From Nanobdellota archaeon (GTDB lineage: Archaea > Nanobdellota > Nanobdellia > SCGC-AAA011-G17 > JAFCDX01): a DNA stretch of 64,000 bases. The DNA lies in the NCBI GenBank assembly GCA_040753775.1, contig JBFMDT010000001.1, forward strand, positions 58,584 to 122,583, read 5' to 3'. The notes under the pieces are model-generated. The model worked only from the letters and a program-made list of their open reading frames with translations, ran no database searches and was not told where the DNA came from. The position numbers and the translations under genes were made by a program. Positions 1,771 through 35,118 of the stretch are shown here, in pieces; the first letter of the stretch is position 1, and each line of letters opens with the position of its first letter.

Positions 1771-1950
1771 ATGCTCAGCTTATTCAAAAGAAGAGATCCT
1801 ATTTGCGGAATGAAGGAGGAGAAAGGAAAGGGCAGTGAAAAATATGGAAAATGGTTTTGTTCGGATAAATGCACCAAGGATTATGAAAAGATAATAAAAA
1901 GCTTATCAAACAAAGATAATAAAAAGCTTATCAAACGTGGATGCTGTTGA
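1771..1950 (+). CDS. YHS/TRASH-domain small metal-binding protein (CopM-like)
   Basis: DPICGM...WFCSDKC motif typical of YHS/TRASH domains; aggagg SD upstream; adjacent to copA. Confidence 0.5.
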   Translation: MLSLFKRRDPICGMKEEKGKGSEKYGKWFCSDKCTKDYEKIIKSLSNKDNKKLIKRGCC

Positions 1951-2012
1951 ACGAAACTATGATAAAAAATTAAAAAGCAGGACTTACTGAACAAATAATA
2001 TTCAAAATAAAT

Positions 2013-3026
2013 ATGCAATATGATGCAGTAATAGTTGGAGGAAGCTTTGCAGGATTAGCTGTTGCTTCTGAAGTTAGTGGAAGGGTATTGCTGATAGACA
2101 GAAAGAAAATTGGGGGCAATGTAACATCTGCATGCGGGACAAGGTATGACCTAGCAAGGGAAATAAGCAAGAAAAGTATATTGCAGAAATTTAATACTGT
2201 GACTTTAAATACAAAGAACAACGAGCATGAGGTAAAACTAAATTATCCCTATTGCACTATTGACTATGAAACATTTTGCAAAGACTGGATGAAAAAAATT
2301 GATGCTGAGTTTATAAAAACAAATGCAGTTGGATATAAAAATGGCAAGGGCGTGATAACAAAAAATGGTAATTATGATGCCAAATGTATAGTTGACTGCA
2401 GTGGATGGAATGCTGTAATAGCAAGCAGCCTGAGAAAAAACTTTGTCAATAAAAAAATGATGAGCTTTGGGATTGAAACAGAATTGAAATACAAAGATAA
2501 TACATTAAGATTTTTTGCTGATTCGGGCATAATAAAGAAAGGGGCTGCATGGATTTTCCCGATAGGCAATGAATCCAGATTTGGTGTTGCAAGCTATGTT
2601 GGCAGGACAAAAATCTTGGATAATTTAAAAAACTTTGTTAAAAGATACAAGCTAAGGCCTAAGAAAGTGTATGGCGGCTATTTTCCCTATGGATTAAGGG
2701 ATTGTGTTGCTGGAAACATCTTTCTCGTTGGAGATAGCGCTTGCCAGACAATTCCCTTGACAGGAGAGGGCATAAGAATAGCGGTCAATTATGGAAGGGA
2801 ATGCGGAAAAATAGTGCAAAAAGTCATAGACAATGAAATAACATTAGAGCAAGGCTTAAATATGTACGGGGAAATAGGAAACAAAAATAAAAGATATTAT
2901 GAGCTTATACTTAAGGCGCAGAATATGTTTATAAATATGAGCGATGTTACAATAGAAAGATTTGCCAAACTGCTTGATAACAAAATGCTTATGAAGATAA
3001 TGGAGGAAAAATACCAGGGGTTATGA
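2013..3026 (+). CDS. FAD-dependent oxidoreductase, geranylgeranyl-reductase family
   Basis: N-terminal GxGxxG FAD fold ([12 protein letters not shown]) and C-terminal LVGDSAC...PLTGEGI signature of the GGR family; stop overlaps the copA start (ATGA). Confidence 0.65.
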
Positions 3027-5476
3027 CAAAAAAAATAATAGCAATAAGCGGAATGCATTGTGCTAGCTGTGCAAACACAATAGAAAAGGCTTTAAAAAAA
3101 CTTAAGGGAATAAAAGATGCTTCTGTCAATTATGCAACAGAAAAGGCAACAATAGAGCATGATGAAAAGTTTGAGATGTCTGAAGCTGCTAAGGCAATAA
3201 AAAGTCTTGGATATACACCATTGGAAGCAGAGGCTGTTGCTAAGGGAGAAATAAGGCTTAAAGTTATAGGAATGTCAAGCCCGCACTGCTCAAACATAGT
3301 CCAAAATGCATTGAACAAGCTTAAGGGAATAACAAATGCAGAGCTTAATTTTGCAAACGAGCTGGCAGTAATAAAATACAACCCAAATATTATAAATGTC
3401 AAAGGGATAAAGAATGAGCTCAAAAAGGCTGGCTACGAGGCTATTGAAGAAAGTTTTGTTGACAGGGAAAAAGAGGCAAGACAGAGGGACATCAGAACAT
3501 TAAGATTAGAATTCATAGTCAGTTTAATTCTTAGTATTCCTATAGTTCTCATAAGTATTCCTGATTGGTTTGGTATAGAAGTCCCATTTGTAAGTGTTCC
3601 ACATGCTTATATGAATTATGTACTTTTCATATTAACAACACCAATTCAATTGATAATAGCAAAAAGATTTTACAAGGGAATGTATTTTGCACTGAAAAAT
3701 AAATCAGCGAACATGGATACTTTAATAGCAGTGGGAACATCAGCTGCTTACTTATACAGTGTTGTTGTAACATTTTTTCCAAATATATTTCAGGACAATG
3801 TTTATTACGATGTTTCTGCCATTATCATTACATTCATAATCCTTGGAAAATATTTAGAGGCTGTCATGAAGGGAAAGACTTCAGAGGCTATTAAAAAATT
3901 GCTTGGATTAAGGCCAAAAACAGCAAGAGTTGTAAGAAATGGCAAGGAGATTGAAATAAGCATAGATGATGTAAGGGTGAATGACATTGTTGTTATAAAA
4001 CCAGGAGAAAAGATCCCTGTTGATGGAATTGTAATTGAGGGAAGCACTTCTGTTGATGAAAGCATGATTACTGGGGAGAGCATTCCTGTTGAGAAAAATA
4101 AGGGAGATGAGGTAATAGGAGCTACAATAAATAAAAATGGATTAATCAAATTTAAAGCAACTAAGGTTGGAAAGGACACTGTATTAGCACAGATTATTAA
4201 GCTTGTTGAGGAAGCACAGGGAAGCAAAGCACCAATACAAAGGCTGGCTGACAAGGTAAGCAGTTATTTTGTTCCTGTTGTCATAGTAATTGCTGTTTTA
4301 TCAGCTTTATTCTGGTATTTTATTGGAGCAAGCTTAACTACACTCAGCATGGCACCATTTGTATTTTCTTTAAGCATTTTTGTAGCTGTATTGATAATTG
4401 CATGCCCTTGCGCTCTTGGCTTAGCAACACCAACAGCTATAATGGTTGGAACAGGAAAGGGAGCTGAAAATGGAATCTTGATTAAGGGGGGTGAAGCATT
4501 AGAAACAGCGCATAAGTTAACAACAGTTATATTCGATAAAACAGGAACATTGACAAAAGGAAAGCCAGAGGTGACGGATATTGTTGCAGCAGAAAAATTT
4601 AATGAAAATGATGTTTTGAAATATGCTGCAATTGCTGAAAAGGGAAGCGAGCATCCATTAGCAGATGCCATTTTGAATAAGGTAAAGAAGATTGCAGGAT
4701 TTAAGATACCAGAAGCAAGTTCATTTAAGGCCCTGCCAGGATTGGGAGTTGAGGTAAAATACAAAGGAACAGAAATTTTATTGGGGAACAGAAAATTAAT
4801 GATTGATAAAAAAGTTGATATAAAAGATTTGGAAGACAATATTAGGAAATTAGAAGAGCAAGGAAAGACTGTAATTGTAGTTTCTTTTAGAAGAAAGGCT
4901 ATAGGAATAATTGCTGTTGCGGATACTTTAAAGGAGAATAGCAAAGAGGCTGTTGAAATTCTGCATAAAATGAAGAAAGAAGTAGTGATGATAACCGGTG
5001 ATAATGAAAGAACAGCAAGGGCTATTGCAAGCAAAATTGGAATTGATAGGGTGTTAGCTGATGTTTTGCCTGGAGAGAAAGCCCATGCTGTTAAGAAGCT
5101 GCAGGAAGAGGGAAAGATTGTTGCTTTTACAGGAGATGGGATCAATGATGCCCCGGCAATGGCACAGGCAGATGTAGGGATTGCTGTTGGCTCTGGAACT
5201 GATGTTGCTATTGAGACTGGCGATATTATATTAATTAAGGATGACTTGAGGGATGTTGTAAGGGCAATCAACCTGAGCAAATACACATTGAAAAAGATTA
5301 AACAAAATTTATTCTGGGCATTTTTTTACAATAGTGTTGGAATCCCTGTTGCAGCTGGTATATTGTACCCTCTTGGATTTTTGCTTAACCCAATAATAGC
5401 AGGCGCTGCAATGGCTTTTAGCTCTGTAAGCGTTGTAGGAAATTCCTTGCTGATGAGAAGGTATAAGGTAAAATGA
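3023..5476 (+). CDS. copA: Cu+-exporting P1B-type ATPase with two N-terminal HMA domains
   Basis: Two GMxCxxC metal-binding motifs, CPC transmembrane motif ([10 protein letters not shown]), DKTGTLT phosphorylation site, GDGINDAP hinge. Confidence 0.95.
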
Positions 5477-8624: not shown

Positions 8625-8680
8625 ATAAAGAAAAAGGGCCGAAGGAAAAACCTCGATGATGGGAAAGGGAAAAGCCTCGG

Positions 8681-8796
8681 AAATGGGAAGGTTTTGAATG
8701 AGGCTGGAGCTTGCTAAAGTGTTGAATTTTGGCAGTGTAGGGCTTATGCTTGGGGTTCCACAGGAAATGAGGTCTCGATTGTGGGAAAGGGTGTAG
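8681..8796. repeat. upstream copy of ~110-bp imperfect direct repeat flanking the HEPN/MNT cassette (core 56 bp, 8741-8796, near-identical to 9675-9730)
   Basis: Direct comparison: tggggttccacaggaaatgaggtctcgattgtgggaaagggtgtag is present at both sites, with extended similarity upstream (aggttttgaat...). Confidence 0.8.
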
Positions 8797-8896
8797 TAGA
8801 GGGTGGAAATGAATGGTAGATAAAGAGGATGAAATTAAGGGAAGAAATATTTAAATAGTTGGAAAAAGAAAAATAGTATGGAAAAAGAGGGAAGGT

Positions 8897-9564: not shown

Positions 9565-9629
9565 AAAGCAATAAGAAGAATCTATAGAAAATGAGGTCTC
9601 GAAATAGGCCTCGATTCTGAGAAGGTTTT

Positions 9630-9730
9630 GAATAAGGTAGGATTTTTCGGAAATGCAGAATTTTACTGGTATAAGGCTTGCTGTTGGGGTTCCACAGGAA
9701 ATGAGGTCTCGATTGTGGGAAAGGGTGTAG
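9630..9730. repeat. downstream copy of the direct repeat flanking the HEPN/MNT cassette
   Basis: See 8681-8796; also contains the aggtctcga/gggaaagg submotifs. Confidence 0.8.
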
Positions 9731-9983
9731 GTGGGGGAAGACAGGACTGAGTGGAAAGGTACAGTAAAGAAGGGTTCTATACAAAGGGCAATGAAGATGA
9801 TATTGGATTTGGAAAGGGGGACAGCTAACCATGCTTTCCGCTGTAATGCAGTACAACATGGAACGGAGGCTTGCTTAACTTCCAGGTTCGAAATGTTTCT
9901 GGGTGGTTCCAAGCCCCTCTGGCCGTCCTGACGTCCATACGCACTTCAGGGTTAATAAGCTTTATGGTTGTGTCAGTACTCCT

Positions 9984-14451: not shown

Positions 14452-15036
14452 TTATTCCTTGTCAAACCTCTTGGTGACAACATCCCAGTCAATAACACCA
14501 AAAAAATTCTCAATATAATCTGCCTTTTTTATGCCGTAATCAGTCATGTATGCGTGCTCAAAAACATCCATTACTAAAATTAGAATCCCTCCAGAAAGAT
14601 GCCCAACGTCATGTTCATTAATCCAAACATTAAATAGTCTATTTGCCTTTTTATCATAATATAATATAACCCATCCAATCCCCCTCATTGCAGCCATTGC
14701 TTTAAACTCTTTTTCCCAGTTCTCGTAGCTTCCAAAATCCTCTATAATCTTCTTAAATAATTTTGAATTCTTATTAAGTTTTTTATTGCTTTTGCAAAGA
14801 TTTCCAAAGTAATATTCATGTAGCTTCATTCCATTAAATTCCCAGCCAAACCTGCGTTTTAGTTCAGCAAATTCCAGAATAGTTGTTTTCCCCTCTTTAA
14901 GCATTGCAGTTAAAGAATCTATTAATTTGTTTGTATTTGTAACATATCCTTGGTAAAGGGCAAAATGATTTCTTAAAAGCTGCTCACTAAATCCCTTTAT
15001 TCCTATTAAATTCTCAAAATTTTTTAGTTCATACAT
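14452..15036 (-). CDS. sod: Fe/Mn superoxide dismutase
   Basis: DVFEHAYM signature; both N- and C-terminal SOD domains present. Confidence 0.85.
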   Translation of the reverse strand: MYELKNFENLIGIKGFSEQLLRNHFALYQGYVTNTNKLIDSLTAMLKEGKTTILEFAELKRRFGWEFNGMKLHEYYFGNLCKSNKKLNKNSKLFKKIIEDFGSYENWEKEFKAMAAMRGIGWVILYYDKKANRLFNVWINEHDVGHLSGGILILVMDVFEHAYMTDYGIKKADYIENFFGVIDWDVVTKRFDKE

Positions 15037-15037
15037 T

Positions 15038-15601
15038 CTAAATCCTTCCTACTAAATTTAGTCCAGGTTTTAAAGTTTTCTTTCCAGGCTCCCAGCTTGC
15101 AGGGCATACTAATCCCTTGTTTTCCTTTACAAACTTAGCTGCCCGAAGTTTTCTCAAGAGTTCTCTGGCATTTCTTCCAATGCTATTATCATGAATCTCA
15201 AAAGCCTTTAATATTCCATCTGGATCTATAATAAAGCTTCCTCTAAGAGAAATGCCTTCATTTTCAATATAAGTTCCGAATTCCCTGCAAAGTTTCCCAG
15301 TCGGATCTGCTACCATTGGGAATCTTATTTTTTTTATGGCCTTTGAATTATCATGCCATGCCTTGTGTACAAAAGTAGTATCTGTGCTGATGCTTAATAT
15401 CTCTGCATTTAATTTTTTGAATTCATCATAAAAGTCAGCTGCTTCTTCAAGTTCTGTAGGGCAAATAAACGTAAAATCAGCAGGATAAAACATTAAAATC
15501 AGCCATTTGCCTTTGTAGTCCGAAAGCCTGATCTTTTTTATACAATTTTCATAAAAGGCTTCTATTTCAAAATCAGGAATTTTCTCTCCTACTTTTACCA
15601 T
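15038..15601 (-). CDS. peroxiredoxin (thiol peroxidase, AhpC/Prx family)
   Basis: FTFICPTE peroxidatic-Cys motif. Confidence 0.9.
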   Translation of the reverse strand: MVKVGEKIPDFEIEAFYENCIKKIRLSDYKGKWLILMFYPADFTFICPTELEEAADFYDEFKKLNAEILSISTDTTFVHKAWHDNSKAIKKIRFPMVADPTGKLCREFGTYIENEGISLRGSFIIDPDGILKAFEIHDNSIGRNARELLRKLRAAKFVKENKGLVCPASWEPGKKTLKPGLNLVGRI

Positions 15602-15636
15602 TTCAGATCTCTAGCACTTTCTTCTTTTTCTTTTTT

Positions 15637-16014
15637 TCATTTTTCCAGGCATTTTTCACATAAACCATTAAAATTAACAACAGCATTGTCCACCCTTACG
15701 CCTTTATAGTTATCTTTTACATCCTCCACAAACCTTTTAGGAAGCCTTGCCATTAAATCTAGTATCCTGCCACACTTGCTGCACATGAAATGGTGATGCT
15801 CTGTTAAATCCCCATCAAAATGAGCTTTTTCAGCGGTATCTATCTCTAAAATCAACCCATTTTTCTTCAATATCTGCAAATTCCTATAAACAGTCCCTGG
15901 GCTTATCCTGCTTAGCTTTTTCCTTACTTCTTTGTATACATCTTCTGCAGTAGGGTGGCTCTTTACGCTCTTAACATAATTTAGTATTTCTTGCCTCTGG
16001 CTTGTCATTTTCAT
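15637..16014 (-). CDS. Fur-family metalloregulator (PerR/Fur-like)
   Basis: Winged helix plus HHHF and CSKCG metal-binding motifs. Confidence 0.85.
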   Translation of the reverse strand: MKMTSQRQEILNYVKSVKSHPTAEDVYKEVRKKLSRISPGTVYRNLQILKKNGLILEIDTAEKAHFDGDLTEHHHFMCSKCGRILDLMARLPKRFVEDVKDNYKGVRVDNAVVNFNGLCEKCLEK

Positions 16015-16065
16015 TTTGATAACTATTCCTAATTAAGAATAACTTCTATTTAAACTTTTCCTTTT

Positions 16066-16914
16066 CTATTTTAAGTGGAATTCAACCACGTCCCCCTCAT
16101 CCAAAATATGGTTAAGCTTTACCATCTGCCCATCAAATTTTGCACTTTTGCCCCATACCTTTGCATAATTAAACTTGTTCAAAAAATCCTTGTGAATGTG
16201 CATTGCTAAATCCTTTACAGTTGCATTTATCCTAAGGGCAACAGGTGGAAAATCAGGCTTCTTGCCAGGTTGCTTTGTATATACATAAATAAGCCTCAAG
16301 GATTTCCATATGATATTTTTTAAGTTTTCTGTCTCTTCATTTCCATCATAATAAACAATAGGAAGCTCTATGTTGTTTTTGTAAAGCTCCTTCAGCACCA
16401 TTCCTCTATCATCCTCATTCCTGTAGGTTAAAATAATTAAATCAGACTCTTTTATTATGCTCAAGAAATACCCGCCTCTTTCCTTGTAATAAAAGTTCTC
16501 AACCACAGCAGGGATCTCTATAATCTGTATCTTTATTCCCTTGTAGTCCATCATCCCTACTTCAAGCTCTTTTGTGGTAAACTCATGCTCTGCTATTTTT
16601 GGCCTGGCGTTTGTGAGCTTGCTTAGCAACAAGGACTTTCCAGACATTGTAACGCCAATGATAGTAATCCTTGCTGCCCCCTCCTTCTTAATACCAACCT
16701 GCTTTGTACCCTTTTTCTTTGTTTTTTGCTTTTCTAGTTGTTCTTTTAGCTTTGCTATCTTCTGTTTTATATCAAGCCTTAAAGTCTCAGCACCCTTATG
16801 GCTTGGCGCTTTTGAGAGCATTTCTTCTAATGCCAAGATTTTTTCCTCTATTGTTTTTGCCTGCATATATTTTTTCTGCACATTTGTAAATTCAACAGTT
16901 ACATTCGCTGGCAT
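16066..16914 (-). CDS. DRG-like GTP-binding protein with C-terminal TGS domain and degenerate G motifs
   Basis: P-loop GVTMSGKS; the C-terminus (IYVYTKQPGKKPDFPP...VWGKSAKFDGQMV...DGDVVEF) resembles the DRG/TGS region; G3 motif not recognisable. Confidence 0.55.
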   Translation of the reverse strand: MPANVTVEFTNVQKKYMQAKTIEEKILALEEMLSKAPSHKGAETLRLDIKQKIAKLKEQLEKQKTKKKGTKQVGIKKEGAARITIIGVTMSGKSLLLSKLTNARPKIAEHEFTTKELEVGMMDYKGIKIQIIEIPAVVENFYYKERGGYFLSIIKESDLIILTYRNEDDRGMVLKELYKNNIELPIVYYDGNEETENLKNIIWKSLRLIYVYTKQPGKKPDFPPVALRINATVKDLAMHIHKDFLNKFNYAKVWGKSAKFDGQMVKLNHILDEGDVVEFHLK

Positions 16915-16959
16915 ATCAATTACAAGACAACTTCATTTTTAAGTATTTTCTTTTTCAGA

Positions 16960-17093
16960 TTTTCCTAAAAAGGCTCTTATTTATTTTTCGCGAACCTTTT
17001 TCCTAAAAAGGCTCTTATTTATTTTTCGCGAACCTTTTTCCTAAAAAGGCTCTTATTTATTTTTCGCGAACCTTTTTCCTAAAAAGGCTCTTT
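16960..17093. repeat. 38-bp tandem repeat, ~3.4 copies (cctaaaaaggctcttatttatttttcgcgaaccttttt)
   Basis: Period 38 confirmed by positions of cctaaaaagg at 16964, 17002, 17040 and 17078; lies in the divergent intergenic region between the DRG-like and MscS genes. Confidence 0.9.
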
Positions 17094-17129
17094 CATAATC
17101 TTTTTAAATACATTTTTCATAACAAAAGC

Positions 17130-26230: not shown

Positions 26231-26330
26231 GCGGATGTGCCGGAGTGGCCAAACGGGGCAGATACTTTGTAGCCCAACCTCAAGAGCTGTTGGCTTAGTG
26301 CCTACACAGGTTCGAATCCTGTCATCCGCA
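26231..26330 (+). tRNA. tRNA gene, ~100 nt; candidate Leu(CAA) with intron(s), precise structure unresolved
   Basis: 7-bp acceptor complementarity (GCGGATG/CATCCGC); T-arm ACAGG-TTCGAAT-CCTGT; internal CTCAAGA (canonical Leu-CAA anticodon loop) flanked by CCAAC/GTTGG but with 3 extra nt; D-arm GCCGGAGTGGCCAAAC is class-II-like. Confidence 0.55.
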
Positions 26331-35019: not shown

Positions 35020-35031
35020 AGTGCGTCAGCT

Positions 35032-35118
35032 GGGATTTGAACCCAGATCCTCGCCTTGGAAGGGCGAGATATTGGCCCATTTCTGACTAGCCATTATACT
35101 ACTGACGCATAATCAAGA
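35032..35118 (-). tRNA. tRNA-Gly(TCC) with a ~14-nt insertion (probable intron) in the D-loop
   Basis: On the minus strand: acceptor GCGTCAG/CTGACGC, anticodon arm TCGCC-CTTCCAA-GGCGA, T-arm CTGGG-TTCAAAT-CCCAG all contiguous; the D-region (GTAT...23 nt...ATAT) is about 14 nt too long. Confidence 0.7.

Follow-up and report, generated by a model that had tools for sequence, protein, structure and literature searches.

Promoter-associated VNTRs and minisatellites of bacteria and yeast alter spacing or the number of binding sites, and slippage and recombination have been proposed as general mechanisms of micro- and minisatellite instability (PMC3899988). The TA repeat in the bidirectional hifA/hifB promoter indicates that such a tract can act on both genes through spacing (PMC3899988). 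Repeats of the hifA/hifB type are microsatellites with units of 2-4 nt, located in the -10/-35 spacer or between repressor sites, and phase variation has been demonstrated for them. Intergenic minisatellites of Mycobacterium tuberculosis have a phase-variable copy number according to the abstract of PMC12817950, and the abstract of PMC2241852 describes the haloarchaeal gvpA/gvpD promoters PA and PD as lying 35 nt apart with overlapping sequences for the GvpE activator. The literature searched contains no precedent for the element described below, and these systems provide general context only.

To evaluate a repeat of this kind in an archaeal setting, we analyzed an array of 38-bp units located between the divergent genes of a DRG/Rbg-type GTPase and an MscS-like channel, within a 64-kb stretch of DNA that is referred to in its entirety as the window. 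With a probability of about 0.65, we read the array as a young single-locus minisatellite in a spacer that is specific to the lineage and separates two back-to-back leaderless promoters of ancestral origin. As in the promoter VNTRs of PMC3899988, a non-coding unit of more than 10 nt is repeated head-to-tail in a regulatory intergenic region, the copy number differs between close relatives, and slippage or unequal recombination is a plausible generator. Unlike those VNTRs, the array is located upstream of both core promoters rather than within one of them, it is known here from sequence alone, and its host is neither bacterium nor yeast but an uncultivated DPANN archaeon with leaderless promoters of the TBP/TFB type. 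The placement of a repeat tract between or upstream of divergent promoters is shared with hifA/hifB, whereas the unit here is 38 nt long and both core promoters are intact and at a normal distance from their ATGs. The gvp promoters PA and PD are likewise archaeal back-to-back promoters separated by tens of nucleotides, and the DRG/MscS geometry of the outgroups is equally compact; the gvp UAS, as described in the abstract of PMC2241852, spans 20 nt without repetition and its activator is known, in contrast to the lineage-specific tandem repeat without a known activator found here. With the M. tuberculosis minisatellites, as described in the PMC12817950 abstract, the locus shares shifts in copy number over short evolutionary timescales; variation is documented there, whereas the present case comprises a single locus in one assembly.

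Tandem Repeats Finder identifies the array at 16960-17092 as 3.5 copies of the 38-bp unit with 100% matches, 0 indels and a score of 266, compared with 100 for the runner-up array of the window. These scores and the shuffles described here place a head-to-tail repeat of a unit longer than 10 nt far above chance. An earlier note on this DNA had given the exact 38-bp period and the location correctly, its end at 17093 is one base too far, and the 3.4 copies which it counted are 3.5. With up to 3 mismatches allowed, the window contains the full 38-mer at no positions other than 16964, 17002 and 17040, and the number of matches in 100 dinucleotide-preserving shuffles is 0. The G+C content of the window is 31-38%. 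The internal organization of the array is as follows.

16960-17092, unstranded: the whole array, with the layout (A B)3 A (Tandem Repeats Finder, repeat families, unit search)
16960, 16998, 17036 and 17074 (start positions), unstranded: repeat A, TTTTCCTAAAAAGGCTCTT, 19 nt, part of the array
16979, 17017 and 17055 (start positions), unstranded: repeat B, ATTTATTTTTCGCGAACCT, 19 nt, part of the array
16987-16994, 17025-17032 and 17063-17070, unstranded: palindrome TTCGCGAA, with 3 occurrences in 64 kb, all inside units
16968-16983, also 17006 and 17044, plus strand: weak BRE/TATA-like match AAAAGGCTCTTATTTA, PWM 4.8 bits
16991-16976, minus strand: weaker BRE/TATA-like match GCGAAAAATAAATAAG, PWM 3.2 bits
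16995-17011, 17033-17049 and 17071-17087, unstranded: unit-junction hairpin CCTTTTT-CCT-AAAAAGG with a 7-bp stem and a 3-nt loop (DNA fold centroid)

Every 19-nt core B is thus flanked on both sides by a 19-nt direct repeat A, and there are zero substitutions among the four A and three B copies. Folded as single-stranded DNA, the array forms three identical junction hairpins (MFE -22.3 kcal/mol, z = -4.5 vs shuffles), with an alternative pairing of the CCTTTTT arm with the upstream AAAAAGG across a 21-nt loop. Perfect 19-nt direct repeats around a 19-nt core, combined with junction hairpins, are a textbook substrate for slippage or unequal recombination. Folding the array as RNA gives a less distinctive result (z = -2.3, unstable centroid), and with Rfam also returning nothing for it at E<=1, we dismissed a small RNA gene. 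Neither strand of the array contains an ORF of at least 20 aa and 38 is not a multiple of 3, which led us to discard a coding repeat as well. The terminator scan found no terminator-like site in the array and both neighboring genes point away from it, which disposes of an intrinsic terminator.

Both flanking genes and their neighbors were assigned by Pfam domains, and the domains confirm the DRG-like GTPase on the minus strand and the MscS gene on the plus strand that the earlier note had named as flanks.

14452-15036, minus strand: Fe/Mn superoxide dismutase
15038-15601, minus strand: peroxiredoxin
15637-16014, minus strand: Fur-family regulator
16066-16914, minus strand: DRG/Rbg-type GTPase (MMR_HSR1 and TGS domains), 100% identical to MEW6062859.1
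17130-17672, plus strand: MscS-like small mechanosensitive channel (MS_channel_1st_1 and MS_channel_2nd domains), 100% identical to MEW6062860.1
17674-18279, minus strand: ribosomal protein uS2

MEW6062859.1 and MEW6062860.1 are proteins of a MAG designated 'Nanoarchaeota archaeon', and each is the sole member of its own 90% cluster. The Fur-peroxiredoxin-SOD block downstream of the DRG gene (14452-16014 in the window, 1943-3510 in the sister locus L026) is present only in the window and the sister species. In four of the outgroup loci (L020, L023, L032 and L034) other genes follow DRG, including those of a HAD hydrolase and a DNA glycosylase in L020 and that of a DNA glycosylase in L023. The oxidative-stress block and the intergenic spacer were gained in the same lineage, which is a co-occurrence only.

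A promoter model was constructed from the 60 nt upstream of 65 other ORFs (at least 90 aa) in the window, with the two flanking genes left out, and a 16-nt motif was refined by expectation-maximisation. The model converged on RAAA-NN-TTTAWAWA, which in most genes starts exactly 35-37 nt before the ATG. A BRE/TATA element at such a distance is the classic archaeal arrangement associated with leaderless mRNAs, and the model predicts the genes of the window to be overwhelmingly leaderless, nearly all of them. Applied to the two flanking genes, it places the core promoters and the spacer between them as listed here.

16934-16949, minus strand: core promoter of the DRG/TGS GTPase gene, AAAATACTTAAAAATG (BRE and TATA), PWM 10.3 bits, offset 35, predicted start 16914
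16950-17094, unstranded: lineage-specific spacer in its entirety, 145 nt from one 16-nt BRE/TATA site to the other (from PWM placement at seven loci plus alignment)
17095-17110, plus strand: core promoter of the MscS-like gene, ATAATCTTTTTAAATA, PWM 9.5 bits, offset 35, predicted start 17130

Both predicted leaderless starts coincide exactly with the annotated ATGs, and both promoters are located outside the array. The DRG-side block catttttaagt and the MscS-side block ccataatctttttaaat are conserved in the sister locus L001 and in the outgroup L020, where the conserved promoter blocks catttttaagtgttt and ccataatctttttaaata are directly adjacent to each other. The TATA box of the MscS gene is itself nearly symmetric: its minus-strand reading AAAATGTATTTAAAAA (17101-17116) scores 8.5 bits with a predicted start at about 17081, and divergent transcription from this box would enter the repeat array.

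The sister species was found through its DRG homologue (P0002, 82% aa identity) and is fully syntenic, carrying SOD, Prx, Fur, DRG, the divergent MscS and uS2. More distant homologues likewise retain the divergent DRG/MscS pair, and seven loci could be compared for the length of the intergenic region and for the gap between the two promoter sites.

Window: intergenic region 215 nt; promoter-site gap 145 nt
Sister species, L001/L026 (DRG 82% aa, MscS 80% aa): intergenic region 142 nt; promoter-site gap 72 nt
L020 (DRG 64% aa, MscS 59% aa): intergenic region 73 nt; promoter-site gap +1 nt
L023 (DRG 61% aa): intergenic region 49 nt; promoter-site gap -18 nt
L025 (DRG 58% aa): intergenic region 69 nt; promoter-site gap +5 nt
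L032 (MscS 60% aa): intergenic region 71 nt; promoter-site gap +7 nt
L034 (MscS 59% aa): intergenic region 61 nt; promoter-site gap -10 nt

The near-zero gaps of the outgroups indicate that the repeat-bearing segment is an insertion specific to the lineage of the window and its sister. In L023 (2967-2984) and L034 (1966-1975), the divergent DRG and MscS BRE/TATA sites overlap by 10-18 nt, and each of these loci has in effect one shared T/A-rich box serving both directions. The five outgroups have no copy of the repeat, the sister has about 1.4 imperfect copies and the window 3.5 perfect ones. Copy number thus differs between related genomes; the locus has the structure that defines a minisatellite and differs between sister species. 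Among the readings offered in the earlier note, that of a tandem repeat is the one that fits this distribution best.

Comparison with the sister provides further insight into which parts of the unit are retained. The sister spacer tttCCTAAAAAGCCccttcttttcccgaGGCTTTTTCTAAAAGACTCCC already has an A-B-A' organization, with imperfect direct repeats and a shorter core, and the window array collapsed to 1.5 units aligns along the whole of it. From TTTCCTAAAAAG onward, 39/49 aligned positions are identical, with 7 gap columns. As the intergenic region of the window exceeds that of the sister by 73 nt, this collapsed alignment points to approximately two extra 38-nt units. The conserved parts are the arms TTTCCTAAAAAG and CTTTTT and the segment AAAAG-CTC. 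The inverted arms read AAAAAGG/CCTTTTT here and AAAAAGCC/GGCTTTTT in the sister, so that complementarity is kept through a swap of G-C to C-G. The arm loop measures 21 nt here and 14 nt in the sister (two species only), and the direct-repeat spacing is 38 nt versus about 33 nt. Conservation extends neither to ttatttat, which is split between a 5-nt gap and mismatched positions when the two species are aligned, nor to the palindrome TTCGCGAA, which aligns to TCCCGAGG in the sister (L001). Fourfold degenerate sites of four flanking genes are identical at 101/200 positions (~50%), compared with ~80% of the aligned spacer-core positions. This excess, together with the retained arm complementarity, suggests that part of the unit may be under selection and that its multiplication is perhaps non-neutral.

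Searches for further copies, which the earlier note had proposed as a check, returned nothing in the 64-kb window or in 35 related loci. Neither the 17-mer TTCCTAAAAAGSCYCTT (up to 2 mismatches) nor the 12-mer A box (up to 1 mismatch) has a convincing copy elsewhere in the window; the A box gives 5 matches against 2.4 expected, of which 4 belong to the array itself. Within a set of 25 related loci only the orthologous sister site matches, and blastn-short against the window and the 35 loci gives no hits beyond 11-13-mers expected by chance. No exact match to a 25-mer of the unit exists among 185,579 GTDB species-representative genomes, nor to a 20-mer in IMG/VR. The arm pattern AAAAAGS-N(8-26)-SCTTTTT occurs 4 times in the window against 0.45 expected, with three of the four occurrences being the units. 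A protein-guided metagenome scan yielded nothing beyond the sister species and distant relatives, and a scan of genome contigs yielded only relatives of up to 52% identity. The sister species is represented by six contigs, drawn from JGI, ENA and Logan samples, and all six contain an identical 142-bp intergenic region; these six strains are near-clonal, with few SNPs over up to 14 kb. The count of 3.5 copies in the window comes from one assembly of the species, the only one on record.

These observations allow the alternative explanations for the array to be weighed. The earlier note had pointed to a TATA-like box and a CGCG palindrome in each unit and had suggested a triplicated promoter or operator. 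Both features are indeed present in every unit, and neither is conserved in the sister. For each unit to be a functional BRE/TATA promoter firing toward MscS on the plus strand or DRG on the minus strand is, in our judgment, very unlikely. The plus strand does carry AAAAAGG followed by an 8-nt T/A-rich box and the minus strand CGAAAA|ATAAATAA, both of which score weakly positive. The corresponding 4.8 and 3.2 bits are nevertheless below nearly all genuine promoters of the window (typically 9-15 bits, and 10.3 and 9.5 for the two real promoters outside the array), and a score of at least 4 is reached at 912 of 127,970 window positions (~0.7%). Such low scores make the TATA-like box a poor match to the organism's own promoters; the BRE-to-TATA spacing is wrong, with CTC in between, and the TTTAWAWA core is missing. 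The predicted plus-strand starts at 17003, 17041 and 17079 have no start codon after them in an overwhelmingly leaderless genome, the TATA-like box is absent from the sister species, and both genes already possess strong conserved promoters. Derivation of the units by local duplication of those flanking promoters was also considered, and the resemblance seen by eye is too weak in AT-rich sequence. The operator suggestion for TTCGCGAA finds no support, given its change to TCCCGAGG in the sister and the lack of any other copy in the window. By contrast, a near-perfect 18-bp palindrome, TATTCTTAATTAGGAATA, is located between the TATA box of the Fur-family gene and its ATG (16024-16041, minus strand) and is 100% conserved over ~21 nt in L026, where 4-fold sites are only ~50% identical; it is probably an autoregulatory Fur/PerR-type operator of the Fur-peroxiredoxin-SOD cluster. 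The repeat unit is unlike this palindrome and the Fur gene has its own strong promoter, and the unit was accordingly rejected as a Fur/PerR operator for that cluster. It is extremely improbable that the array represents the footprint or solo copy of a small MITE-like mobile element, a CRISPR remnant, or origin repeats (ORB, iterons). The spacer is an insertion relative to five outgroups and has inverted arms, and minisatellites inside MITEs are known in bacteria (abstract of PMC4596501), all of which would suit a mobile element. Searches of 64 kb from this genome, 15 kb from that of the sister and the other loci nonetheless yielded no second copy, and the exact-match searches of genomes and IMG/VR were empty; with only chance blastn-short matches, a MITE or dispersed repeat was set aside. 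The statement of the earlier note that this is not a CRISPR array holds: the units are contiguous without spacers, their start-to-start spacing is 38, the same as the length of the unit, and Rfam gave neither a CRISPR-DR nor any other match at E<=1. The annotated syntenic sister locus has no Orc1/Cdc6, Rep or Cas gene within ~10 kb. Replication origins are expected to be conserved in relatives, whereas this element is not and its repeats are absent in the five outgroups.

A regulatory role for the arms deserves more weight, although we still consider it unlikely. In this explanation the array is a multiplied cis-regulatory element, in which the arms TTTCCTAAAAAG ... CTTTTT would form a transcription-factor site upstream of one or both BREs, serving as an upstream activating or repressing sequence, and triplication would raise occupancy or cooperativity. 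The position of the array directly upstream of both BREs is one from which archaeal activators operate, as GvpE does through its UAS in the space separating the divergent promoters PA and PD (abstract of PMC2241852). Conservation of the arms is well in excess of the neutral level, a compensatory change has preserved the inverted repeat, and the arm pattern is enriched in the window, if mostly by the units themselves. The arm loop and the direct-repeat spacing, however, both differ between the two species, which is awkward for a dimeric DNA-binding protein; no other gene of the window has an A box upstream; five outgroups operate the same gene pair without the element; and since the element is found in two species only, the covariation amounts to a single event. 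Whether the copy number itself could be an assembly artefact, with 1.5 or 2.5 real copies over-expanded by a loop in a de Bruijn graph, must also be asked, and this we regard as improbable. A perfect 38-bp period is shorter than the k-mers usually needed for resolution, and the single assembly is accompanied by no second contig with identical flanking proteins. Gross error is unlikely all the same, because the array is short enough (133 bp, against a standard read of 150 nt) for ordinary single reads nearly to span it; the contig is long (128,932 bp) and unbroken at the array, and the A-B-A organization in six sister assemblies indicates that at least the repeat itself is genuine. More ambitious is the proposal that the array is an archaeal contingency locus, in which gain and loss of units would reversibly tune or insulate DRG GTPase expression against that of MscS, with co-tuning of the Fur-peroxiredoxin-SOD genes downstream of DRG, either through a changed promoter-to-promoter distance or through the number of sites for a factor recognizing TTTCCTAAAAAG/CTTTTT. 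Taken with all its parts, this proposal is improbable. To our knowledge, repeat-mediated expression switching is well documented in bacteria, hardly in archaea, and not at all in DPANN.

The young minisatellite in a lineage-specific spacer remains the explanation that we favor, and its history may be sketched as follows. In related Nanoarchaeota/Woesearchaeota, DRG and MscS are divergent neighbors with abutting or overlapping BRE/TATA sites. The common ancestor of this organism and the sister species acquired a spacer of ~70 nt with the organization A-B-A' and the inverted arms AAAAAGS/SCTTTTT. In the present genome, the A-B segment stands three times with zero mismatches. The 19-nt direct repeats A would have driven this expansion, through slippage during replication or through unequal recombination, possibly aided by the unit-junction hairpins. 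Zero substitutions among the A and B copies suggest that this expansion was recent. Its chief physical effect, and a certain one, is geometric: the core promoters, ~0 nt apart in the outgroups and 72 nt apart in the sister, are now separated by 145 nt, and the conserved arm motif has been multiplied and is present four times. The units appear to add no consensus promoters. Any effect on expression would be expected to operate via promoter spacing or insulation, or via extra copies for an arm-binding factor, and would not stem from the TATA-like box or the CGCG palindrome. Against the minisatellite stands the observation that no copy-number polymorphism was seen, the sister locus being identical in its six near-clonal assemblies; stability is to be expected there, since the sister repeat is imperfect.

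The window contains several other features. A probable tRNA gene at 26232-26330 on the plus strand combines a canonical T arm GGTTCGAATCC with an acceptor stem of 7 perfect base pairs (GCGGATG...CATCCGC); it carries about 25 surplus nucleotides, either an intron or a long extra arm, was missed by ARAGORN and scores 19.9 bits against an Rfam cut-off of 29. An 87-nt tRNA at 35022-35108 on the minus strand scores 57 bits in Rfam, was likewise missed by ARAGORN and presumably contains an intron. Intron-containing tRNAs are common in DPANN archaea. Near the 3' end of a small Cys-rich ORF there is a perfect tandem duplication of 25 bp x 2, AAAGATAATAAAAAGCTTATCAAAC, at 1887-1936, the end of which (1919-1942) is a 24-nt, 100% inverted copy of 536-559, located 1359 nt away; the two copies may bound a small element as its terminal inverted repeats, or may be regulatory sites that work as a pair. 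A 142-nt direct repeat (8674-8815 and 9608-9749, 76% identity, 934 nt apart) is found just upstream of the 5S rRNA gene at 9816-9930.

In the favored reading, the array is an ordinary intergenic minisatellite, and its main value is negative, in that annotation as promoter triplet, operator, CRISPR array or mobile element is not warranted. The promoter model obtained along the way, RAAA-NN-TTTAWAWA starting 35 nt ahead of the ATG, is useful for the annotation of this lineage. A contingency locus, if true, would be moderately interesting, and copy-number polymorphism, if true, would make the array a rare candidate for repeat-mediated expression variation in a DPANN archaeon. The locus and its relatives also provide a natural series for one divergent gene pair, in which the promoters range from abutting through 72 to 145 nt apart, and which could be used to ask how spacing affects the cross-talk of back-to-back archaeal promoters.
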